Positions 16,254 through 25,901 of a stretch of DNA of 64,000 nt are shown piece by piece. Numbering within the stretch: the first letter of the stretch is position 1; each line of letters starts with the position of its first letter. The translations under genes and the position numbers were made by a program. The notes beneath the pieces are model-generated. The model was not told the origin of the DNA. It searched no databases and saw only the letters and a program-made list of their open reading frames with translations. This stretch comes from Chlorobiaceae bacterium (GTDB lineage Bacteria > Bacteroidota > Ignavibacteria > UBA10030 > SZUA-254). Location: contig PNNN01000011.1 of assembly GCA_013824245.1 (NCBI GenBank), positions 43,396-107,395 of the forward strand, read 5' to 3'.

Positions 16254-17600
16254 ATGGATTTCCTAAAGGATGCGGCTCTTCCGCAATCGTTAGAACACTT
16301 TCATCTCATCGTGCTGATCGCGGTCATCAATTCACTTATGTTCGTGCCATTTCTGACCTTCTTGCTTGGCTCATCTGTTCTTTCTAACCTTTTCGATAGG
16401 AAAGGGAGAAGGGAAAACAATCCGTCATACAATAAAATAGCAAAGGAAGTAATTGATGTTGCCTTATACAACAAAAGCGCACTTACGTTTCTTGGAATAA
16501 TTCCCGGCATATCGCTCGTTTTTGTTTACGCGCAAATGCTTCAGTCCACAGACGCTATATCTGTCGGGCTGGCTGGATTCGGTTTTTTATCTCTCGTGAT
16601 CGCTCTCGTTCTTCTGTACACTTATAAATATACATTCAGGGTTCAGGGATTGCTCGATGTCGTAGAAGATAACAAGGCAAACAGCGATGTTAACGATTAC
16701 CGCAGAACAAATACCAGTGTTCATGTGCGTTCGGGGAAGTGGGGATTGTTCTTCCTTTTTGTTGCCGCCTTTCTTTACGCATCGGCGATGAGTGTAACAA
16801 CGAATCCATCAAGCTGGACCGATATCGGTTCGATATTCGATGTTTTGATCTCGGCTGATGTTTGGTTGAAGTTTTTGATTTTCCTCATATTCTCTCTCGG
16901 TATTACCGGAGTTGGTATTTTATATTTCTTCTTCGCATATCAGGGGCATAAGCCGGATACGGATGAACAGTTAAAAGAACTCGTTCATAAAATTACCAGA
17001 CGATTCATAGTCATTTCGATGCTTGTACTGCCAACGCTGGTTCTCCTGAACGTTTTCACGCTTTCTATTGATGTCCTTTCCGGAACGATTTATCTTCTTA
17101 CCGGGTTAACGCTTTTGTTTTTATTTCTTGCAGCACATTTCCTTTACGGTTATTTCAAACAAGGAGAGTTAAAAGCCGTCGGATACGGGTTTTTCTTCTT
17201 CCTTTGTGCGGCAGCATCGCTCATCATCAACGATCATGTGATGATCGGAAATGCAACTAAAGAGCATGCCGCTCTGCTTGGTTTGAAATATGAGAAAACA
17301 ACTGAGGAATTAAAATTGAAATTGGGTGTTGCGATGGTGGTTATGACTGGGGAGGATATTTACAATGCGAAGTGTTCTGCGTGTCATGTGTTCGATCAAA
17401 AAAAAGTTGGTCCGCCTTACAACGAAACAATTCCAAAATATAAAGGAGATAAAGCGAAGATCATCGCCTTTGTTTTGAACCCATCCAAGATAAATCCTGC
17501 TTATCCTCCGATGCCAAATCAGGGATTGAAACCCGCTGAAGCCGATTCGATTGTGAGTTATTTGCTGAGTAAGATTGCAGGTAATACACAGCAGAAATGA
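16254..17600 (+). CDS. polytopic membrane protein with C-terminal monohaem cytochrome c domain
   Basis: About 8 TM helices in the first 330 aa, then CSACHVFDQKKVGPPY...PPMP (class I cytochrome c fold). It is followed by a terminator. Confidence 0.6.
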   Translation: MDFLKDAALPQSLEHFHLIVLIAVINSLMFVPFLTFLLGSSVLSNLFDRKGRRENNPSYNKIAKEVIDVALYNKSALTFLGIIPGISLVFVYAQMLQSTDAISVGLAGFGFLSLVIALVLLYTYKYTFRVQGLLDVVEDNKANSDVNDYRRTNTSVHVRSGKWGLFFLFVAAFLYASAMSVTTNPSSWTDIGSIFDVLISADVWLKFLIFLIFSLGITGVGILYFFFAYQGHKPDTDEQLKELVHKITRRFIVISMLVLPTLVLLNVFTLSIDVLSGTIYLLTGLTLLFLFLAAHFLYGYFKQGELKAVGYGFFFFLCAAASLIINDHVMIGNATKEHAALLGLKYEKTTEELKLKLGVAMVVMTGEDIYNAKCSACHVFDQKKVGPPYNETIPKYKGDKAKIIAFVLNPSKINPAYPPMPNQGLKPAEADSIVSYLLSKIAGNTQQK

Positions 17601-17623
17601 AACAACAAAGTTATCATAAATTG

Positions 17624-17651
17624 CCACGACCTTTAGGCCGTGGTTTAATAT
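17624..17651 (+). terminator. Rho-independent terminator after the oxidase cluster
   Basis: CCACGaCC-TTTA-GGcCGTGG hairpin followed by TTTAATAT. Two further small hairpins follow at 17696-17745. Confidence 0.6.
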
Positions 17652-17764
17652 AAATTGTATATCCGGACTTCAGTCCGATACTTCATTTGTGTTGAAACCC
17701 CTTTAGGTTTTATTTTTGGTTTCCCCGACATGAATGTCGGGACTATAAAGCTGAACAATAAATA

Positions 17765-18628
17765 ATGACAAACAAACTTTCCAATTACATCGCCCTCACC
17801 AAACCGGGGTTAACATTTGTCTCAGTAAGTACCGCAGTTGGTAGTGCATACCTTGCATTGGTTGGAACGGATAATTTGTATTTGCTGTGGCATGTTTTCA
17901 TCGGTGCGTTCATCGCGGGCGGCGGAGCAGGCGCGCTAAATCAGTATCTTGAACGCAACTATGATGCACGGATGACAAGAACAGGCCTGAGACCGCTTCC
18001 GGCAAATAGATTACCTGCCAACAATGTTCTTTTGTTTGGGATTATACTCTCTCTTATTGGTTGCATTTATCTGGCGGTTTTTACAACCATAGTTGCGGCG
18101 GTTCTAACTGCGGCAACGTTAATTATCTATTTACTTTTATACACGCCGATGAAACGCCGCACTCCGTTTGCAACTGTTATCGGCGGCATCGCGGGCGCGC
18201 TTCCGCCGCTTATCGGGTGGACTGCAATGACGGGAAGTATTTCATTAGCCGGGTTATCCCTTTTTTTCATATTGTTTTTCTGGCAAACGCCGCATTTTCT
18301 CGCACTCGCCTGGATTCACCGCGAAGATTATGAACGAGCAGGTTACAAAGTTATCACCGTTGTTGACCCTACCGGAATTTCTGCAACCCGGCAAGTTATA
18401 ATTTATTGCATAGCTCTTGTTCCCGCTTCACTCATGCCTGCGTTAGTTGGACTTGCAGGCACGATCTATTTTATCGGTGCCTTGATCTTTTCTCTAGGAT
18501 ATTTATCGGTTGGATTGATCCTCTTCCGTGATCGCACGAATTCAAAAGCACGATTGCTGTTCACTGCTTCGATAATATATCTTCCGATCTTGTTTATTCT
18601 TATGATTTTGGATAGATTGTTGCATTAA
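17765..18628 (+). CDS. ctaB: protohaem IX farnesyltransferase (haem O synthase)
   Basis: UbiA-family polytopic protein with the conserved NQYLERNYDARMTRTGLRPLP region. Confidence 0.9.
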   Translation: MTNKLSNYIALTKPGLTFVSVSTAVGSAYLALVGTDNLYLLWHVFIGAFIAGGGAGALNQYLERNYDARMTRTGLRPLPANRLPANNVLLFGIILSLIGCIYLAVFTTIVAAVLTAATLIIYLLLYTPMKRRTPFATVIGGIAGALPPLIGWTAMTGSISLAGLSLFFILFFWQTPHFLALAWIHREDYERAGYKVITVVDPTGISATRQVIIYCIALVPASLMPALVGLAGTIYFIGALIFSLGYLSVGLILFRDRTNSKARLLFTASIIYLPILFILMILDRLLH

Positions 18629-18653
18629 ACCGGTTCAAATCTAACGAGGTTTT

Positions 18654-20150
18654 ATGTATAGATACTCAATATCATTTCTGCTGACTTTCTTTGTAATTAC
18701 TAGTGTTTCACTATCCCAGACATCGCCTTCAACAGGGTTAGTGCGAGAATCTCAGGATTCGAATTTCCAGCAATTCATTAACCGTGTGAATGCCGCCGCC
18801 TCGCAGGATCGAAGCGCAATTGTCGATAGCTTCATGCTGGCGGTTCCTGCGTTCCCGTTCATTGAAGATCCGGTAGCGCATTTTATTTATCGCGGAAATG
18901 TAACAAGCGTAAATGTTCCCGGCGATGCTAACGGATGGAGCAGCAGCGGATATCCGATGACAAAACTCTCCACTACAGATTTCTGGTATACTTCTCAGGT
19001 GTTCGAGAGCGATGCACGTCTCGATTATAAATTTATTCTCAACAGTTCATCATGGATTCTCGATCCGCGCAATCCGCATACTGTATCGGGCGGATTCGGT
19101 CCGAACTCCGAGCTTGCCATGCCGCAATATGTTCAGCCGTGGGAGATTCAATACGATTCCACCGTCCCGCACGGTCGCATCGAGTCAAGAACTATTTTCA
19201 GTAATTATCGTTCGGCAACGTACAGTCTGAATGTTTATTTGCCGCCTGATTATCGTAGCGTTGGTCAGCCTTATCCAGTTGTTTATTTTCAGGACGGTTC
19301 GGAATATATCAACTTAGGAAAAACGAAAAACGTTATCGATAACCTCATCGGATATTTTTATATTCAAGATATAATTGCGGTTTTTGTCACACCGCTCAAC
19401 CGCAACGAAGAATATGCCGGTTCATTGCGTGATCAGTATATGCAATTTTTCGTTTATGAACTTGTGCCGTTCATCGACACTCTTTATAACACGAATAAAG
19501 CCCGGCATGCAAGAGCAGTTATAGGAGATTCGTACGGCGGGAATATTTCGGCTCTTATATCTTATAATCATCCCGGTATATTCGGTAATTGCGGATTACA
19601 TTCCGGTGCATTTCAACCTAACAATTACGAAGCATTCAACCTCATTGTAAACGGTGTGAATAAAAAAGATTCGATCAGATATTTTTCTGTCTGGGGAACT
19701 TATGAAAATCCCCTAACTCAAAATATGCGTGCGTTCAAGGATTCTCTTTTAAAAAAAGGATACGTTTTCGGTTGGCAGGAAAGACATGAGGGTCATAGCT
19801 GGGGCCTCTGGCGCGCGACAACCGATTTGATACTGCGACATTTTTTCGGATATCCTTCCGGTGTTTCTGAAATAAATAATCATCCGGTTGAGATTAAGCT
19901 CGATCAGAATTATCCAAATCCGTTTAATCCGTCGACTAATTTCGGATTTCGGATTGTTGATTTCGGATTTGTAACGCTAAAGATATTTGATCTGCTGGGA
20001 CGTGAAGTGGCAACTTTAGTTAACGAAACGAAACAGCCCGGTGAATACAAGGTGAAGTGGAATGCAGAAGGAGTGTCGAGCGGAGTGTATTTGTACCGAC
20101 TGCAGGTGGGAGGTTTCTCGGTGACGAAGAAGTTGTTGATGGTGAGATAA
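18654..20150 (+). CDS. secreted esterase (alpha/beta hydrolase, GDSYGG serine motif) with T9SS C-terminal sorting domain
   Basis: Signal peptide, esterase-like core with GxSxG (IGDSYGGN), and a C-terminal Por/T9SS CTD (NYPNPFNPST...GVYLYRLQVGGFSVTKKLLMVR). Confidence 0.7.
   Translation: MYRYSISFLLTFFVITSVSLSQTSPSTGLVRESQDSNFQQFINRVNAAASQDRSAIVDSFMLAVPAFPFIEDPVAHFIYRGNVTSVNVPGDANGWSSSGYPMTKLSTTDFWYTSQVFESDARLDYKFILNSSSWILDPRNPHTVSGGFGPNSELAMPQYVQPWEIQYDSTVPHGRIESRTIFSNYRSATYSLNVYLPPDYRSVGQPYPVVYFQDGSEYINLGKTKNVIDNLIGYFYIQDIIAVFVTPLNRNEEYAGSLRDQYMQFFVYELVPFIDTLYNTNKARHARAVIGDSYGGNISALISYNHPGIFGNCGLHSGAFQPNNYEAFNLIVNGVNKKDSIRYFSVWGTYENPLTQNMRAFKDSLLKKGYVFGWQERHEGHSWGLWRATTDLILRHFFGYPSGVSEINNHPVEIKLDQNYPNPFNPSTNFGFRIVDFGFVTLKIFDLLGREVATLVNETKQPGEYKVKWNAEGVSSGVYLYRLQVGGFSVTKKLLMVR
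20078..20150 (+). repeat. direct repeat copy 1 (T9SS CTD-coding 3' end)
   Basis: 73 bp, about 94% identical to 20817-20889 (4 mismatches). Confidence 0.85.
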
Positions 20151-20200
20151 TCTCACAGTTGACTTTCTCAGTTAAATGATATTATATTGATAGTAATAAA

Positions 20201-20485
20201 TTGGAGCATCTAATGCCAGTAATAAGACCCATTTCCGATTTGAGGAATAAAGCCAACAAAATCTCTGAGCTTGCCCACAAATCGGGTGAGCCGATTTTCA
20301 TCACGAAAAATGGTGAAGGAGATATGGTCGTAATGTCCATGGCTCAATACAGCAAAATTCAACTCAAGCTTGACCTGTTTAGCAAACTTGCAGTCGCTCA
20401 AGTTCAGCGTGCGAGCGGCGACAAAGGTCGAAGTTTATCAGCCGTTATGAAAGACATCCGCCGGCGGATACATGAGTCGGAATAA
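20201..20485 (+). CDS. Phd/YefM family antitoxin
   Basis: MPVIRPISDLRNKANKISELAHKSGEPIFITKNGEGDMVVMSMAQY is the classical Phd/YefM N-terminal fold sequence. It overlaps the downstream toxin gene. Confidence 0.8.
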   Translation: MEHLMPVIRPISDLRNKANKISELAHKSGEPIFITKNGEGDMVVMSMAQYSKIQLKLDLFSKLAVAQVQRASGDKGRSLSAVMKDIRRRIHESE

Positions 20486-20780
20486 GTATACTGTTCGATT
20501 TCTCCGGATTGCCGAGGACGATTTTGCGGAAATCATAACTTATATCTCAGCCGACCGTCCGTCAGCAGCAGAAGTTCTTGGCACAAAGATTGAAAAAAAT
20601 CTTCAACTCCTTTCCCAAAATCCACATTTAGGTCGGGTACCGAAAGAAGATGAGCTTGCTCAACTCCATTATCGATACCTCGTTGTGGAGAATTATCTCA
20701 TCTTTTATACCGTAGAAGGGCAATCGATTTACATCCATCGAATACTCCACGGTGCACGCGACTATCTAAGTTTATTCTAA
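20472..20780 (+). CDS. parE: ParE/RelE family toxin
   Basis: About 100 aa, overlaps the antitoxin gene. C-terminal IHRILHGARD is characteristic of ParE. Confidence 0.8.
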   Translation: MSRNKYTVRFLRIAEDDFAEIITYISADRPSAAEVLGTKIEKNLQLLSQNPHLGRVPKEDELAQLHYRYLVVENYLIFYTVEGQSIYIHRILHGARDYLSLF

Positions 20781-20781
20781 C

Positions 20782-20889
20782 TACTCCACCGAAGACGAAG
20801 ATGGCTCAAAGTTGACGAGCGGAGTGTATTTGTATCGACTGCAAGTGGGAGGCTTCTCGGTGACGAAGAAATTGTTGATGGTGAGATAA
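20782..20889 (+). pseudogene. orphan 3' fragment of a T9SS CTD-coding gene (contains direct repeat copy 2, 20817-20889)
   Basis: An open frame without a start encodes ...EDEDGSKLTSGVYLYRLQVGGFSVTKKLLMVR*. The last 73 bp are near-identical to the 3' end of the esterase gene 670 bp upstream. Confidence 0.7.
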
Positions 20890-20975
20890 CAGTGCAGGTA
20901 TTGTCAAAGGCGGGGTTATTGAATCACTTATCTGTAAAGTTAATGCTAACGTTAGTTTATCTTTCTACAAACGTT

Positions 20976-22127
20976 TTATTTTTTATGAAGATTTTTTTGT
21001 AGCTCGATTACTATAGAATGACAAATTATAAGTTTATTTATTAGTTCTTCCAATTTGGCTTCAACATTTCTTCTCGCTTGATTTAATTCTTTTGCCATTC
21101 TGGGTAAATTGCTGATTGTATCAAGGAAAGATTTCGTGCCACTCAAACTGCTTTCAATACCTGACATCAATCCTTCAAGAGAGTTAATTGCTCCCCGTAT
21201 GTCTTCTTCGTTAGATATGCTAAAGTCTGAACGGTAGATTGTCACTAAATGAAAGAGTGCATCTGAACCTTTTTCAAAGCTCTTTATGAAGATAGGTATG
21301 TCGGGCTCAATTCTGCTTGCAAAGTTATTCATTATATCAGCAGTCCGCCCAAAAAAATCACGAAGAACTTTCTTACTAATATCTTGTTTGCTTGATGTCA
21401 AAGAATTGAGTTCGGTTGTCTTTTTGTTTATCTCACTCCCTACCCATTTTGTGGCATCAGTTATTCGCAATAAAGCCTGTGTTGAGTCGTTAAATGATTC
21501 TTCTATTATTTCTTGATAATCAATGACGCCAAGCTCTTCTTCTAAGGGCGTCTCAATTGAAGCAATTTTTGATTTAGTATTCGCAGATGGTTCTCCCAAT
21601 TCATCTAATCTTTTAGGGATATGCATTCTAAGAAATTTTTGTAGTTCCTCATTTGTATTATATTCCCAATAGTAAACGCCTTTATCGCCGATTTCATTTT
21701 TAAACTCATTAACCTTTTTAAGTTCATGTGGTTCAATGTCAGAAAGAGACATTGGGGAAGCAGTTTTAAAATAGAACAATATTTGAAGTGATTTCGGATC
21801 TCTTTTAAATCTTGAATAAGCATTTCGAAATTCTTGCTCAGTCCCAGATTCACATTCTTTTGTTGGGGTTCCAAATTTTTTCCATAGAATTCCAATAAAA
21901 AGATCATAATCTGTTCCAAGGTCTTTGTCTATTATATCTTGAGGGCTTGCTTCACTAACTGCAGGTGCCGAATGTGTTTCCCATTTAATGAGTTCAATAA
22001 TTTTATTGGCTTTATTTCCATACGTGATGTTGAGTTCATCAATTACCTCATCCATCGATTCTCTTTCATCTCGTACATCCGATGGAGAAGCAACTAATAT
22101 TCTGTATTTGTTAATAGTTTGAGGCAT
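20976..22127 (-). CDS. DUF4062-like N-terminal domain protein with long alpha-helical C-terminal region (candidate single-gene defence/conflict protein)
   Basis: N-terminus YRILVASPSDVRDERESMDEVIDEL...IKWETHSAP...DYDLFIGILWKKFGTPT...SGTEQEFRNA matches the DUF4062 pattern (FISST..DL..ER / mE / D.f..il..rYG / SiTelEyreA). Residues about 180-383 are predicted helical/coiled-coil with no recognisable enzymatic motif. Confidence 0.55.
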   Translation of the reverse strand: MPQTINKYRILVASPSDVRDERESMDEVIDELNITYGNKANKIIELIKWETHSAPAVSEASPQDIIDKDLGTDYDLFIGILWKKFGTPTKECESGTEQEFRNAYSRFKRDPKSLQILFYFKTASPMSLSDIEPHELKKVNEFKNEIGDKGVYYWEYNTNEELQKFLRMHIPKRLDELGEPSANTKSKIASIETPLEEELGVIDYQEIIEESFNDSTQALLRITDATKWVGSEINKKTTELNSLTSSKQDISKKVLRDFFGRTADIMNNFASRIEPDIPIFIKSFEKGSDALFHLVTIYRSDFSISNEEDIRGAINSLEGLMSGIESSLSGTKSFLDTISNLPRMAKELNQARRNVEAKLEELINKLIICHSIVIELQKNLHKK

Positions 22128-22249
22128 ATCATAAAATGTTTGTTAGCGCTCGTAGTTTAAACAGTTTTATCTTTCATTGTCAAGAATTTACGCAATCTTA
22201 AGTGAAGTGTCAAGTTTTGCCGGGCGGAGAGAACTCAATAATCAATCTA

Positions 22250-22304
22250 AACTTCCCGAAAGTTGCTGTGTTTGTTCCATCTGGAACTTTCGGGAAGTTT
22301 TTCA
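22250..22304 (+). terminator. long perfect inverted repeat (15-bp arms, 20-nt spacer) plus T-tract; terminator-like hairpin or dimeric operator
   Basis: AACTTCCCGAAAGTT-N20-AACTTTCGGGAAGTT followed by TTTTTCAT. Confidence 0.5.
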
Positions 22305-22740
22305 TAGTGATCACTTTTTTGAGTATTGCTGAGTTGTGTTATTTCTCATTCAAAATTCAAACTTACAACTCTACGTTTATTTTTCTTAATATATCAATCT
22401 TGCAATAAATATCAAACAGAAGAATCCTTTCCTTTTATACTTATGGTTTTTTAAAGGCGTTACTAACATATTTGTGAAATGTATAACGAAATTCCCCGAC
22501 GGTGTCCTCGGGATATTTCGTTTTCTGCAAAATATTTAACGAACTGAAGTTCGTTCTACAATGAATTCACCGGCATTAAAATCTCCACCTCGATGAGGGG
22601 GAGATTACAGAGGGGGTTATTTCGGGTTTCCTTTAAATTCAATCAAAACAACAAATAACACGCCCCCAAAATCCATCCTGCCCAACTTCTGTGTCCCTGA
22701 ATCGCAAGAACAAATTGGGCACTTTGAAGAGTTTGATTAT

Positions 22741-23274
22741 ATGTACCAATTTCTGTATTATTGTATAGTGTTGAAAGGTTTGAATATGAAAAGAATATTG
22801 TATCCCGGAATCTTATCGTTGTTAATTGTTGCGTTAAGCTTAGCCCAATTTAAATCTCAGAGTGAGCAGACAAGCGTTGCCAGCTCTCTCGTAAAACCGA
22901 TGTCGGGCGTTGGAAGTTTGTTGGGTTTGATAAATCCCGATAATCTTTTTATGCGACATAGTCTTTCTCTTAATTATATGTCGATGGGGAATATGGGGGT
23001 TTCGGTTGCTTCGTACACAAACAGTTTGTTCTATAAAATATCTGATCCGCTGAATGTGCGTTTCGATGTAACTTTGCAAGGATCGCCGTTCGGACAAACA
23101 CAGTTTCAAAATTCACTTAACGGAGTTTTCCTGAGCCGCGCCGAGTTGAACTATCGTCCATGGGAAAATTTTTTCGTCAAGTTCGAATATAACAGGATGC
23201 CTATGAATTATTACGGAAGATTCAACCCGTGGTACAGTCCGTATTCAAATTCATTTTTTGATGAAGGTGAATAA
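22741..23274 (+). CDS. hypothetical secreted protein (signal peptide; probable true start MKRIL at about 22786)
   Basis: N-terminal signal peptide followed by an Asn/Ser/Tyr-rich sequence (possibly a beta-rich OM-associated fold). No recognised domain. Confidence 0.4.
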   Translation: MYQFLYYCIVLKGLNMKRILYPGILSLLIVALSLAQFKSQSEQTSVASSLVKPMSGVGSLLGLINPDNLFMRHSLSLNYMSMGNMGVSVASYTNSLFYKISDPLNVRFDVTLQGSPFGQTQFQNSLNGVFLSRAELNYRPWENFFVKFEYNRMPMNYYGRFNPWYSPYSNSFFDEGE

Positions 23275-23362
23275 GCGGCGTTGGAAACTTTCTTCACTGC
23301 AGTTCTCATTTTTTTCCCGAGGGGGTATTTCCATTTAAAAAGCTTACCCGGTTTTATGTCAA

Positions 23363-23857
23363 ATGATGAATCTTGAATTTGACGGTATAGAAGAGCGAAC
23401 GGTTAAACCTGCGCCCAAGCTTCCAGTGAAAAGTAAATTACCTAAGTTTATTATTTCTGGATCGATAGGTATTTTGCTTATCGCGGCAATCTATTTTGGT
23501 TACCCATATCTTTCAGGAAATATTGAACAGCCCAAAGAGAAACAGCAATTACAACCGCCACGAATTATTCAACTCGATGTTCTAAACGGCTGCGGGGCGA
23601 AAGGCGTTGGATCTCGCTTCACCGATTTCCTGCGGGCAAATGGTTTTGATGTAGTTGAGATGAAGAACTATAAAAGTTTTCTCGTCAACCAAACGCTTGT
23701 TGTTGACAGGATAGGGGATTTATCTTTAGCCCGGCGTATTGCCGCCGCGTTAGGAGTGAGTGAAAAAAATATTATACAGCAAATAAATCCCGATTACTTC
23801 GTTGACGTTTCGGTAATCATTGGGAAAGATTTTTCAGAATTAAAAGTAACGCACTAA
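23363..23857 (+). CDS. LytR_C (LytR cell-envelope-related attenuator C-terminal) domain protein
   Basis: TM anchor then QLDVLNGCGAKGVGSRFTDFLRANGFDVVEMKNY...VVDRIGDLSLARRIAAALGV, typical of the LytR_C domain. Confidence 0.65.
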   Translation: MMNLEFDGIEERTVKPAPKLPVKSKLPKFIISGSIGILLIAAIYFGYPYLSGNIEQPKEKQQLQPPRIIQLDVLNGCGAKGVGSRFTDFLRANGFDVVEMKNYKSFLVNQTLVVDRIGDLSLARRIAAALGVSEKNIIQQINPDYFVDVSVIIGKDFSELKVTH

Positions 23858-23874
23858 CAATTATTGGAGAAATA

Positions 23875-24273
23875 TTGACACCTAAAACACTTTCTAAAAA
23901 AATCGCAGATCTGGCGCTTTCAAAAAAAGCGAACAATGTATTAATTTTAGATCTACGAAAACTGACCGATATGGCAGACTTTTTTGTTGTTTGTTCCGCC
24001 GATTCCGATGTGCAGGTTAAAGCAATTGCCGATGCTATTGTTGATGGAATGGAAGATGTCGGCTCATCGCCTTGGCATCAGGAAGGTTTAACAAACCGGC
24101 AATGGGTTTTGCTCGATTATGTTGATGTTGTGGTCCATATTTTTCATAAAGAGATGAGAAAATTTTACGGACTTGAAAAACTATGGGGCGATGCAAAAAT
24201 TGAAGAGGTTATCGATAAACCCGCGCCGAAGAAAACCACACGCAAACCACGCACCACAAAAAAGAAAAAGTGA
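23875..24273 (+). CDS. rsfS: ribosomal silencing factor RsfS (Iojap)
   Basis: ADFFVVCSADSDVQVKAIADAI...VLLDYVDVVVHIFHKEMRKFYGLEKLW matches the conserved RsfS core. The start may be TTG. Confidence 0.85.
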   Translation: MTPKTLSKKIADLALSKKANNVLILDLRKLTDMADFFVVCSADSDVQVKAIADAIVDGMEDVGSSPWHQEGLTNRQWVLLDYVDVVVHIFHKEMRKFYGLEKLWGDAKIEEVIDKPAPKKTTRKPRTTKKKK

Positions 24274-25901
24274 AAAAGTACCTCTCATTACAACTCTCAC
24301 CTGTGCTGCAAGCGCTTGGTGTTCCTGAATCTATTGCACCGATATTTGAAAAACCGCGAACCGAATCTCACGGCGATTTGACTACAAATATTGCGATGAT
24401 CGCGGCTAAGCATCTGAAAACAAATCCGCGTCAGCTTGCACAGCAAATTTTGGAAAAACTGAATCTTGATAAAACTCTGGTCGACAAGATAGAAATTGCC
24501 GGTCCCGGTTTTATAAATTTCAGGTTTTCGGATAAATATTATCATGCTCAATTAGCTGATATTCTGGAAAAAGAAAATCAGTTTGGAAGGTCCGGCACAG
24601 GTAACAAATTAAAAACACAAGTCGAGTTTGTCAGCGCAAACCCAACCGGACCTTTAACTGTAGGTCACGGGAGAGGAGCGGTGTACGGAGATACTGTCGC
24701 GCGACTTCTTGAATGGACAGGTTACGATGTAACGCGCGAGTATTATTTCAACAACGCGGGCAGACAAATGCGTGTTTTGGGCGATTCGGTTCGATTGCGC
24801 TATCTTGAACTGTTGGGAGAAAAAATAGATTTTCCCGAAGATTATTATCAGGGCGAGTATATCAAAGAGATTGCGCAGCATCTTATTGATCTTCATGGAA
24901 AGAATTTGAAGGATGAGCCGGCTGAAGGTAAATTCAAACAGCAAGCCGAGACGGAAATATTTGACGACATCAAAAAAACTTTGGCAAGGATTGGAGTGAA
25001 ACATGATGTTTTCTTCAATGAGAACACACTCTACGAAACCGGGCAGGTGAAGGAAGTAATAGAGGAATTACGCAAGAAAGATTTAGCTTACGATCAGGAT
25101 GGAGCGGTATGGTTTAAGGCAACTGCTTTCGGGGGTGAGAAAGATAAAGTGATTGTGAAAGCAACCGGTGAGCCAACATATCGATTGCCCGATATCGCGT
25201 ATCACCGCGATAAACTTCGACGCGGTTATGAGTTGATAATTGACGTGCTTGGTGCCGATCATGTTGCAACATATCCAGATGTACTTGCGGGAATTAAAGC
25301 GCTCGGTTACGATGAATCTAAAATAAAAGTTCCGATTCATCAGTTCGTTACAATCCTGCAGGAGGGCGCGGTTGTGAAGATGTCCACCCGCAAGGCAAAC
25401 TTCATCACGCTCGATGAACTGATAGATGAAGTCGGAGCCGATGTCGTGCGATATTTCTTTTTGATGCGCGGGATTGGAAGTCATTTGAATTTTGATCTCA
25501 AACTTGCGAAGGAACAGTCGGAGGAAAATCCTGTTTACTATTTGCAATATGCTCACGCGCGGATAGCGAGCATCATCCGGCTCGCTGAAAGTAAAGGTGT
25601 AGATGTGAGCAAGTCGTATGATTTATCGCTGTTGAATCAGCCTGAAGAGATTTCTTTGATGAAACTCCTGTCGCAATTCCCGGATATGGTTGAATCATGT
25701 GCCGCAACATATGAGCCGCACCGGCTTGCAGAATATTTACATGATGTCGCGGGAAGTTACCACAAGTTTTACCATGAGCATCGGGTTGTGGGAGATGATT
25801 TAAATATCACCGCTTCACGCATCGCACTTTGTCTTGCAACCAAAACAGTACTTGCCAACGGATTTTCAATTCTCGGCATCCACGCGCCGGAGAAGATGTA
25901 A
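24270..25901 (+). CDS. argS: arginine--tRNA ligase
   Basis: Arg_tRNA_synt_N region (GPGFINF), SANPTGPLTVGHGRGAVYGD (HIGH-type), a class I catalytic core and a DALR anticodon-binding C-terminus. Confidence 0.95.
   Translation: MKKYLSLQLSPVLQALGVPESIAPIFEKPRTESHGDLTTNIAMIAAKHLKTNPRQLAQQILEKLNLDKTLVDKIEIAGPGFINFRFSDKYYHAQLADILEKENQFGRSGTGNKLKTQVEFVSANPTGPLTVGHGRGAVYGDTVARLLEWTGYDVTREYYFNNAGRQMRVLGDSVRLRYLELLGEKIDFPEDYYQGEYIKEIAQHLIDLHGKNLKDEPAEGKFKQQAETEIFDDIKKTLARIGVKHDVFFNENTLYETGQVKEVIEELRKKDLAYDQDGAVWFKATAFGGEKDKVIVKATGEPTYRLPDIAYHRDKLRRGYELIIDVLGADHVATYPDVLAGIKALGYDESKIKVPIHQFVTILQEGAVVKMSTRKANFITLDELIDEVGADVVRYFFLMRGIGSHLNFDLKLAKEQSEENPVYYLQYAHARIASIIRLAESKGVDVSKSYDLSLLNQPEEISLMKLLSQFPDMVESCAATYEPHRLAEYLHDVAGSYHKFYHEHRVVGDDLNITASRIALCLATKTVLANGFSILGIHAPEKM

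Follow-up and report, generated by a model that had tools for sequence, protein, structure and literature searches.

A solitary gene encoded against its neighbours

The window analysed here is a 64,000-nucleotide stretch of contig PNNN01000011.1 from a Chlorobiaceae bacterium. Positions 20976-22127 on the minus strand hold a complete coding sequence (stop codon 20976-20978), defined by its open reading frame and full-length homologs, for a 383-residue protein with an N-terminal DUF4062/NIR domain and a C-terminal helical bundle. The start codon is ATG, and because M1 is invariant in the homolog alignment, the assigned start is right. An identical copy (P0001) is found in a "Chlorobiaceae bacterium" MAG, and full-length homologs share 42-69% identity with the protein. 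A word-index search returned 223 homologs, mostly full-length, which identifies a real gene rather than a chance reading frame, and 13,201 representative clusters matched at E ≤ 1e-3. Every other real gene within 16254-25901 lies on the plus strand. The DUF4062 gene alone is on the minus strand and converges, across a 195-nt spacer, with a ParE toxin gene that ends at 20780. The initial annotation had given this reading frame, its opposite strand and its convergence with a toxin-antitoxin (TA) module, and the coordinates and strands agree exactly.

The convergent neighbour is a type II TA cassette at 20201-20780 on the plus strand, which lies outside the system described here. Pfam identified a Phd/YefM antitoxin (20201-20485; PF02604, E = 1.7e-13) and a ParE toxin (20472-20780; PF05016, E = 1.5e-17) that overlap by 14 nt (20472-20485). 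The cassette is flanked by its own 77-nt direct repeat (20074-20150 and 20813-20889), with the DUF4062 gene outside, and its GC content is 0.438 compared with 0.342 for the DUF4062 gene. None of 80 loci with a member of the DUF4062 family has a homolog of this Phd or this ParE. The cassette represents an insertion of its own, unlinked to this family, and the proposed linkage of gene and cassette is not borne out. The JGI label "RelE" on P0042, P0046 and P0049 was considered as a TA link and rejected as spurious; the P0042 locus contains no TA gene.

The GC content of the DUF4062 gene falls at the 5th percentile of the window and its GC3 is 0.258 against about 0.43, so the gene is compositionally foreign. 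A metagenome scan with the flanking esterase yielded no relatives, and we therefore gathered syntenic relatives through ArgRS. The DUF4062 gene is missing from 80 contigs that carry the p177-LytR_C-RsfS-ArgRS block. The earlier picture of a single inserted islet (20151-22740), with T9SS genes on one side and housekeeping genes on the other, survives only in part. The foreign GC3 and the gap in the 80 syntenic contigs agree with it, but synteny generally breaks down left of p177, the contigs compared yielded no empty site, and the TA cassette is bracketed separately.

A structured intergenic region upstream of the gene

A divergent intergenic region of 613 bp (22128-22740) separates the DUF4062 gene from p177 (22741, plus strand). 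This region is AT-rich (GC 0.357) and structured: its minimum free energy is -154.2 kcal/mol versus -125.8 ± 6.0 kcal/mol for shuffled sequences (z = -4.75), beating 20 of 20 shuffles. It contains no convincing open reading frame, and the small ones there look spurious. The initial description of a hairpin-rich, non-coding stretch of about 600 bp therefore holds. Terminator-like hairpins lie at 22494-22513 and 22538-22555. On the minus strand, two overlapping sigma-70-like sites (TTGACA-N17-TAAATT and TTGACA-N18-TAAACT; 22154-22213) sit 27-86 nt upstream of the DUF4062 start codon. They form a candidate promoter by consensus match only, and promoters of other types may be in use in the host phylum; the region holds 16 sigma-70-like sites where 7.0 ± 2.9 are expected. 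A repeat search also found a perfect 16-nt inverted repeat, AAACTTCCCGAAAGTT / AACTTTCGGGAAGTTT, with a 20-nt loop (22249-22300). It lies a short way upstream of the promoter-like sites, gives the intergenic fold its strongest stem, and could possibly act as an operator or an insulating hairpin. Rfam gave no match over 19800-23200 (E ≤ 1), and by BLAST the intergenic sequence is neither conserved at homolog loci nor repeated in the window.

An intact DUF4062/NIR domain with a TIR-like fold

The N-terminal part of the protein matches PF13271 over residues 9-103 (21819-22103) and the whole length of the profile (positions 1-82 of 82), with E = 2.4e-6 and a bit score of 28.1 (gathering cutoff 24.7). 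Most homologs also carry a precomputed Pfam DUF4062 match. The AlphaFold model shows a single alpha/beta domain that extends beyond the Pfam model to span residues 6-178 (21594-22112, minus strand), and the Swarozyc authors note that the Pfam model omits about half of the domain (bioRxiv 10.64898/2026.05.01.722283). Thus, the original assignment of the first 110 or so residues to DUF4062 was correct in kind but too short. Structural comparison of the model confirmed the suggested TIR-like fold, more precisely a TIR-like or nucleoside-2-deoxyribosyltransferase-like (NDT-like) alpha/beta fold. Its neighbours are TIR domains, including those of TIR-SAVED and TIR-STING, with MilB CMP hydrolase and nucleoside 2-deoxyribosyltransferase scoring equally. 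In profile-profile comparisons, residues 1-178 matched plasmid-encoded DUF4062 proteins of Calothrix, Chryseobacterium and Enterococcus with probabilities of 99.7%, 99.3% and 98.3%, respectively.

Translation, alignment and conservation point to a predicted active-site motif, S94-G-T-E-Q-E99-F100 (21828-21848, minus strand), in which E99, encoded at 21831-21833, is predicted to be the catalytic glutamate. Its position matches the essential glutamates E97 of KpSwz, E98 of Vulcan and E87 of Eva01, and E99-F100 aligns with Eva01 E87-Y88, a pair that is required for defence (bioRxiv 10.64898/2026.06.25.731849). E99, S94, G95 and Q63 are invariant in all 255 family members aligned (median identity 38%), and W49 and E50 are nearly so (252 and 248 of 255). 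The domain is a DUF4062/NIR domain with its active-site motif intact.

A helical auxiliary domain on a poorly conserved linker

A linker at residues 179-199 (21531-21593, minus strand) follows the N-terminal domain. It has a pLDDT below 50 at residues 181-197, many indels and the lowest conservation of the protein. Residues 200-383 (20979-21530, minus strand) form an all-alpha auxiliary (AUX) domain. Modelled alone, AUX comprises five long helices over residues 201-382 (pLDDT 90.4, pTM 0.83). The C-terminal region had been described as a helical domain of 200 residues lacking a catalytic motif; it is indeed helical and motif-less, but about 180 residues long. No Pfam family and no PDB sequence matched AUX, and a HEAT signal was sought in the C-terminus and not found. 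PDB sequence searches with the whole protein, the family profile and the C-domain profile returned noise only, and no DUF4062 structure was present. Across the family, the structure of AUX is conserved while its sequence varies, as is likewise the case for the AUX regions of Evangelion and Swarozyc (bioRxiv 10.64898/2026.06.25.731849; 10.64898/2026.05.01.722283). One distal-loop motif, L-P342-R-x-x-K-E-x-N349, is nearly invariant. AUX is predicted to be a sensor or oligomerisation module.

Family distribution and genomic contexts

The full-length DUF4062-plus-bundle family is large, patchy and mostly from Bacteroidota. Among the best 150 of the 13,201 representative clusters, about 140 are full-length and almost all measure 373-423 residues; the family is conserved end to end. 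A pattern scan recovered it from 198 of 185,579 species in many phyla. Only one of 158 plasmid matches covered at least 80% of the protein, making the family essentially chromosomal, and no member was found in phage genomes or viral contigs. The absence of phage members and the single plasmid match at this coverage indicate that the usual association with mobile elements is weak.

No neighbouring gene is conserved across the 80 family loci. The protein therefore has a one-gene architecture, a DUF4062 core followed by AUX with no obligatory partner, and the proposal of a stand-alone gene is upheld. Some family loci do adjoin defence genes. At one, the family gene lies directly downstream of DISARM drmA-drmB (L008), and at another it adjoins a TIR-TM/ThsB-like gene (L170). 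Among 141 neighbours of family genes there were strong matches to type I methyltransferase, KwaB, MADS components, PDC-S14 and PDC-S48, and one family member carries a fused PDC-M03B/HIRAN module. Many other loci have no recognisable defence neighbour and instead carry RND efflux, two-component, housekeeping or hypothetical genes; in this window, the TA pair is the only defence-type neighbour. Homologs thus sit beside defence genes at a minority of loci, but not consistently in defence islands as had been anticipated. For NIR proteins as a whole, the NIR paper gives an average of 20% near known defence systems, against 3.9% in its background (bioRxiv 10.64898/2026.09.04.749371).

Relation to known DUF4062 and TIR systems

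DUF4062 was thought to recur in fusions with STAND and other modules, and this proved right: anti-phage systems contain DUF4062 fused to STAND/NLR-like, HEAT and other domains (2026 preprints). DUF4062/NIR is a recently recognised NADase effector common to bacterial immunity and human TEP1, and proteins that join DUF4062 to an auxiliary domain (Swarozyc, Evangelion and NIR/Vulcan/Vesta) are single-gene abortive-infection NADases (2026 preprints). KpSwz, TEP1 and PsAvs2 (WP_273864396.1) hydrolyse NAD+, yielding ADP-ribose together with nicotinamide (2026 preprints). NAD+ depletion, which the initial annotation had put forward as an assay, is precisely the effect that these relatives display. 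The architecture is therefore not undescribed, as the initial annotation had supposed, since such single-gene defence proteins were published in 2026; what sets this lineage apart is its AUX domain, which is neither of the winged-helix type seen in Swarozyc nor of the HEAT type seen in Vulcan and also differs from that of Eva01.

KpSwz, the Swarozyc protein (WP_202404386; bioRxiv 10.64898/2026.05.01.722283), is likewise a single polypeptide of similar size plan with an N-terminal DUF4062 TIR-like NADase. That domain spans residues 1-164, compared with 6-178 here, and the catalytic glutamate lies near position 97-99 in both. In KpSwz, which forms an intertwined dimer, a helical "stalk" leads to an auxiliary domain at the C-terminus that defence requires, and the proposed logic, in which AUX senses and the NADase rearranges, would be common to both proteins. 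The Swarozyc AUX differs in being a helix-turn-helix/winged-helix domain with a hairpin anchor that binds the phage portal, neither of which we encountered; this separation is drawn from the published description. Vulcan (WP_050009967.1; bioRxiv 10.64898/2026.09.04.749371) has a C-terminus of HEAT repeats, for which the present protein gave no signal.

Eva01 (pMW2, WP_000072390.1; bioRxiv 10.64898/2026.06.25.731849) is also a single gene with a DUF4062 core and an unannotated AUX, both of which are needed (bioRxiv 10.64898/2026.06.25.731849). In addition to the E87-Y88 correspondence, Eva01 F11 corresponds to position 11 here, where the family consensus is F. The alignment is weak and limited to the N-domain (hhalign 55%, E = 1.2e-4), and its AUX is unrelated to the one here. 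Whereas this family is essentially chromosomal, Eva01 resides on a plasmid and has links to resistance genes. Given the marginal N-domain alignment, the lack of an AUX alignment and the near-absence of plasmid carriage, we rejected membership in the Eva01 lineage.

The PADLOC model PDC-S60 (PDLC05050) was matched at profile positions 3-226 with E = 8.9e-52, placing the N-terminal DUF4062 in the same subclade. Eva01 does not match PDC-S60, which implies that the two proteins belong to different DUF4062 subclades. Membership in PDC-S60 itself was rejected because only the first quarter of PDLC05050 (906 positions) was matched and PDLC05051 (1027 positions) was not; by comparison, an 874-residue Chryseobacterium plasmid protein matches both models. 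Like the present protein, the long DUF4062 proteins Vulcan and PDC-S60 are single-protein systems whose C-terminal region is helical, and we conjecture that these two are the same; a literature search for "PDC-S60" found no paper.

AbTir, TIR-STING and TIR-SAVED, the last two of which are among the structural matches, exemplify bacterial TIR NADases with coiled-coil partners. Their activity depends on an attached domain that oligomerises or senses, as is proposed for the present protein. These NADases belong to Pfam TIR/TIR_2 rather than DUF4062 and differ in domain order and AUX fold, and the present protein has no cyclic-nucleotide sensor domain. Thoeris-like TIR signalling was also considered and rejected, because no ThsA-like effector gene is conserved beside the family in the 80 loci.

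Proposed function and alternative readings

We consider it probable that the product of this gene is a stand-alone protein of the DUF4062/NIR class, defending against phage through abortive infection. The TIR-like domain, with E99 as its catalytic residue, would be an NAD+ glycohydrolase that is inactive in uninfected cells. The long-helix bundle, held on its flexible linker, would sense an infection cue and/or drive self-association, and trigger binding would then re-pack or oligomerise the NADase domains. We infer NADase activity, abortive infection and a sensor role for AUX because these have been studied in the relatives KpSwz, Eva01, Vulcan and PsAvs2. The domain identity, active site, solitary architecture, defence neighbours at a subset of loci and mobility signature all count in favour of a defence role. 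Counting against it are the many loci without defence neighbours, the lack of phage carriage, the single near-full plasmid match and the marginal similarity to Eva01 (55% probability). Furthermore, human NWD1, NWD2 and NPHP3 showed no NADase activity under the conditions tested, and Eva02 gave no defence (2026 preprints).

An improbable alternative is that the protein is a non-defence nucleotide or nucleoside enzyme of NDT/MilB type, such as an N-glycosidase acting on a nucleotide or modified base, or a regulator of the NAD(P) pool, with the bundle serving only in oligomerisation. MilB and the deoxyribosyltransferase score level with TIR domains as fold neighbours, many loci have housekeeping surroundings, and neither phage nor prophage carriage was seen. 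However, the sequence family is DUF4062 rather than NDT, and an enzyme of this kind fits poorly with the patchy distribution, foreign composition, absence from 80 syntenic relatives, lack of a conserved operon and embedding of some loci in defence systems. Rather less probable still is a signalling or scaffolding role, in which the TIR-like domain either produces a signal from NAD+, in the manner of Thoeris ThsB, or acts only as an interaction module, and the bundle is a coiled-coil adaptor. The nearest neighbours by fold are TIR domains, a signalling or interaction role for some NIR domains is a speculation of the NIR authors (bioRxiv 10.64898/2026.09.04.749371), and the three human DUF4062 proteins lacked NADase activity. 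Yet TIRs that make signals depend on an effector partner, and the 80 loci share no conserved neighbour; the catalytic glutamate and surrounding motif are invariant; and NAD+ was lost with every bacterial DUF4062 protein so far found to defend, the products, where measured, being ADPR and nicotinamide. Finally, a functional three-gene module in which the DUF4062 gene and Phd/ParE were acquired and are regulated jointly is hardly credible and largely refuted by the co-occurrence data: the genes are adjacent in the window, an Enterococcus plasmid DUF4062 gene adjoins a RelE/ParE-HTH pair and TA modules often occur near Eva01 loci (bioRxiv 10.64898/2026.06.25.731849), but the Phd/ParE homologs are absent from all 80 family loci, the repeat bracket leaves out the DUF4062 gene, the genes converge and are not co-transcribed, and the GC contents differ.

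Returning to the abortive-infection NADase, we tentatively suggest that proteins of about 385 residues combining DUF4062 with a four- or five-helix bundle may constitute a distinct, widespread, Bacteroidota-centred NIR defence lineage. Its STAT-coiled-coil-like bundle might be a new sensor or oligomerisation switch with a trigger unlike those of Swarozyc (portal), Avs2 (terminase), Eva01 (recombination intermediates) or Vulcan (lambdap79), and the L-P342-R-x-x-K-E-x-N349 motif would be a candidate recognition or contact site. The bacterial DUF4062 proteins tested so far are enterobacterial, Pseudomonas, staphylococcal and Acinetobacter examples (2026 preprints). This lineage has its centre in Bacteroidota and in Chlorobi-like bacteria, in which few defence systems have been tested. 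If the lineage is inactive or non-defensive, it would set a limit to guilt-by-domain inference across the DUF4062 tree. If it is active, the rule of a constant NADase core with a variable sensor would reach a new sensor fold and environmental phyla, and this small (383-residue), soluble, single-gene protein would provide a model for the gating of a TIR-like enzyme by a helical bundle.

A DUF4062 protein with a conserved predicted active site

The gene at 20976..22127 on the minus strand starts with ATG and encodes 383 amino acids, the same ORF that the initial annotation had called. An identical protein is already recorded from a MAG labelled 'Chlorobiaceae bacterium', and all aligned homologs share M1. 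Pfam matched PF13271 (DUF4062), the family expected at the N-terminus, to residues 9-103 at 28.1 bits, above the gathering score of 24.7. The authors of the Swarozyc preprint report that roughly half of the true domain lies outside this Pfam model; in their protein KpSwz the DUF4062 domain is defined as residues 1-164 (bioRxiv 10.64898/2026.05.01.722283). Those bounds agree with our AlphaFold2 model of the whole protein (mean pLDDT 83.7, drawing on 49 homologs), in which residues 6-178 form a single alpha/beta domain, residues 181-197 a disordered linker and residues 201-382 five long helices.

Using profile-profile alignment, we found that S-Y-T-E-M-E87-Y88 of the Evangelion protein Eva01 (from pMW2, L083:3863-4837) aligns onto S94-G-T-E-Q-E99-F100 of the query, a predicted active-site motif encoded at 21828-21848 on the minus strand. 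The corresponding studies show that E87 of Eva01 (bioRxiv 10.64898/2026.06.25.731849), E97 of KpSwz (bioRxiv 10.64898/2026.05.01.722283) and E98 of Vulcan (bioRxiv 10.64898/2026.09.04.749371) are needed for defence. Among 255 full-length family members, whose median identity to the query is 38%, E99, S94, G95 and Q63 are kept in every protein, and W49, E50, D17, R22 and D75 are kept in more than 95%. Because these residues are invariant or nearly so, the enzyme core looks intact and under strong constraint.

The C-terminal domain is distinct from those of described systems

DUF4062 has been established in three 2026 preprints as a TIR-like NADase effector in anti-phage defence (bioRxiv 10.64898/2026.05.01.722283, 10.64898/2026.06.25.731849, 10.64898/2026.09.04.749371), and the general class of conflict systems that the initial annotation had proposed is therefore real. 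Swarozyc is one protein, in which a helical stalk and a winged-helix auxiliary (AUX) domain follow DUF4062; it is activated by the phage portal, converts NAD+ to ADPR and nicotinamide, and causes abortive infection (bioRxiv 10.64898/2026.05.01.722283). Evangelion is a single-gene DUF4062 plus AUX system carried by resistance plasmids, which needs F11, E87, W162 and the AUX domain, and infection lowers NAD+ (bioRxiv 10.64898/2026.06.25.731849). Under the name NIR, the domain also serves as an Avs2 effector, is joined to HEAT in Vulcan and occurs in Vesta as a small NIR protein with an alkaline phosphatase; ~20% of NIR genes have known defence genes nearby, compared to 3.9% by chance (bioRxiv 10.64898/2026.09.04.749371).

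When residues 196-383 of the query were modelled alone (pLDDT 90.4, pTM 0.83), helices were predicted at fragment positions 6-50, 57-78, 81-107, 112-144 and 151-187, and the modelled fold is a long antiparallel bundle. Judged by the papers' descriptions, this all-alpha domain differs both from the HTH/winged AUX fold in Swarozyc and from the HEAT repeats in Vulcan. The alignment with Eva01 is marginal and confined to the N-domain. Plasmid proteins from Enterococcus (98.3% probability), Calothrix (99.7%) and Chryseobacterium (874 aa; 99.3%) also align over the N-domain only, and in all four proteins the C-terminal region is left unaligned. No Pfam family was common to the 29 C-domains scanned, PDB sequence searches with the C-domain and family profiles gave no match, and the C-domain contains no hydrophobic segment. 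Because the preprints labelled AUX domains by Pfam, they would have left unlabelled any AUX that lacks a Pfam family. The C-domain is much less conserved than the N-domain (mean top-residue frequency of 0.42 versus 0.58 in the 255 members); only G200 and P342 are at least 95% conserved, and N349 is found in 88%.

The PADLOC candidate family PDC-S60 matches residues 6-233 (E 8.9e-52), at profile positions 3-226 of 906 only. The query thus matches only the DUF4062 part of PDLC05050 and is not a PDC-S60 member, in contrast to the Chryseobacterium protein, which matches both models, including the C-terminal PDLC05051. The gene for the latter protein (Chryseobacterium sp. SNU WT5 plasmid, L173:974-10471) is nested in type I R-M genes (hsdM, hsdS ... 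hsdR) and adjoins a CBASS-like pair of nucleotidyltransferase and S-4TM effector, forming a compact plasmid defence island. On 'plasmid 2' of Salmonella Senftenberg NCTC10384 (L172:5974-6546), a 190-aa DUF4062-only ORF directly follows prophage terminase genes, and the next gene is an IS3 transposase. The ORF resembles a DUF4062 defence gene that was carried by the prophage and cut short by the IS element.

A widespread full-length family

The full-length architecture of DUF4062 plus helical bundle is conserved end to end across the family. The matches listed by a word-index search were mostly 376-411-aa proteins, to 42% identity at ~100% coverage. Exhaustive profile searching yielded 13,201 representative clusters at E<=1e-3 (2,076 at E<=1e-30), and nearly all of the best 150 of the 13,201 are 373-423 aa long and matched from position 1 to ~385. 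Pattern scanning with a single genome for each species recovered the family from 198 species, down to 29% identity; most are Bacteroidota, with others in Planctomycetota, Chloroflexota, Nitrospirota, Proteobacteria and further phyla. The family is rare on plasmids, and no member was found in the phage genomes and viral contigs searched. P0228 (734 aa), P0164 (713 aa) and P0252 (547 aa) carry extra modules ahead of DUF4062 and the bundle (PDC-M03B/HIRAN, HATPase_c with DUF4325 (STAS-like), and CopG-type RHH), which may be real fusions or merged metagenome gene calls. Three 389-aa members (P0042, P0046 and P0049) are named 'mRNA-degrading endonuclease RelE of RelBE toxin-antitoxin system' by JGI. 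This name looks like an annotation error, as we found no RelE-like feature in the proteins or at the P0042 locus.

A gene of foreign composition beside a toxin-antitoxin cassette

All other credible genes within 16254-25901 are on the plus strand and encode a cytochrome-c membrane protein, a heme O synthase-like protein, an esterase with a T9SS sorting tail, Phd, ParE, an uncharacterised 177-aa protein (p177), a LytR_C protein, an RsfS-like protein and ArgRS. Pfam confirmed the TA pair (Phd/YefM, 20201-20485, E 1.7e-13; ParE, 20472-20780, E 1.5e-17). The DUF4062 gene runs opposite to these neighbours and faces ParE, convergent with the TA module; what had initially been observed of this arrangement is confirmed in every part. 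A RelE/ParE toxin and HTH pair also immediately precedes a 333-aa DUF4062 gene, flanked by IS1216 and IS30, on Enterococcus faecalis plasmid pJF3A-4253-2 (L081:2227-3999). DUF4062 genes adjoin a ParE-family TA module in two independent cases, this one and that of the window.

Among windows of the same size, the GC content of the DUF4062 gene (0.342) lies in the 5th percentile; its GC3 is 0.258 compared to ~0.43 in neighbours. The p177-LytR_C-RsfS-ArgRS block (22741-25901) keeps its gene order and orientation in virtually all of 80 related metagenome contigs (L089-L168), and synteny ends exactly upstream of p177. None of these 80 contigs, including those reaching ~7.5 kb upstream of p177, has DUF4062, Phd or ParE homologs. 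A different conserved set of four genes, missing from the window, precedes p177 in the closest relatives, and therefore the region left of p177 is a general synteny breakpoint. A 77-nt direct repeat (20074-20150 and 20813-20889, 94% identical) brackets the TA cassette on either side. The first copy consists of the esterase gene's 3' end with its stop codon, and the second lies within a truncated T9SS-tail remnant (20782-20889, '...EDEDGSKLTSGVYLYRLQVGGFSVTKKLLMVR*') that begins right after the ParE stop. The cassette looks to have inserted into, or recombined at, T9SS C-terminal-domain coding sequence, duplicating the 3' end of the gene. The DUF4062 gene is outside this bracket, and the cassette has a GC content of 0.438 versus 0.342 for the gene. 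On the best reading, gene and cassette were acquired separately at a variable site and do not form one functional module. The proposal of a single defence islet at 20151-22740 survives only in part: the foreign composition and the absence from related contigs support it, but the cassette is a repeat-bracketed unit of its own, and no clean empty site left of p177 was found among the related contigs.

The 613-bp divergent intergenic region between the DUF4062 gene and p177 (22128-22740) contains no convincing ORF and folds far more stably than shuffled controls (z = -4.75, with 0/20 shuffles as stable), in keeping with its original description as hairpin-rich and non-coding. Two promoter-like matches with perfect TTGACA are on the minus strand at 22154-22213, 27-86 nt upstream of the start. 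Just beyond, on the upstream side, is a perfect 16-nt inverted repeat with a 20-nt loop (AAACTTCCCGAAAGTT ... AACTTTCGGGAAGTTT, 22249-22300), which has no second copy elsewhere in the window; that this palindrome is an operator or insulator is only a guess. Terminator-like hairpins at 22494-22513 (readable on both strands) and 22538-22555 occupy the middle of the region, where there is no upstream gene for them to terminate. A small RNA, or the remains of a gene since lost, could lie in this segment (22494-22555) or in the unusually structured stretch as a whole. The upstream region had no Rfam match and showed no conservation with homolog loci.

Genomic context and predicted function

We examined 80 family loci (1,286 ORFs) by crude gene calling and all-against-all clustering, and no neighbour was kept beyond a handful. 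As to whether homologs of the same architecture sit in defence islands, a minority of loci have defence neighbours. In a Flavobacteriales MAG (L008:2661-9695), DISARM drmA (E 1.5e-203) and drmB (E 4.8e-66) are immediately upstream of a 51%-identical member on the same strand, and another member (L170) neighbours a TIR-TM/ThsB-like gene. The 141 neighbours at the 22 closest loci include strong matches to type I methyltransferase, KwaB, MADS components, PDC-S14 and PDC-S48. Other loci are ordinary, with RND efflux and two-component genes, and elsewhere CvfB, UbiA and ECH genes or hypothetical proteins. Such surroundings fit a solitary defence gene, without proving one.

On the best-supported reading, which draws on analogy with its relatives, the protein probably acts alone as an NIR/DUF4062 NADase and brings about abortive infection. 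The N-terminal domain would supply the NADase activity, and the helical bundle would be a sensing or oligomerising auxiliary domain through which the enzyme may be activated. The core could instead belong to an NDT-like enzyme without a defence function, which we consider unlikely, and a signalling or scaffolding role for the TIR-like domain is more doubtful still. That the gene forms a functional unit with the adjoining TA pair is scarcely credible, given that Phd and ParE homologs occur at 0/80 family loci and that the gene differs from the cassette in GC content and lies outside its repeats.

The finding is thus real, and the core idea of the initial annotation was right. The term 'undescribed' no longer applies, since proteins of this kind have meanwhile been reported in the 2026 preprints. 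The DUF4062 gene therefore represents a further lineage of a known kind and is a candidate defence gene.
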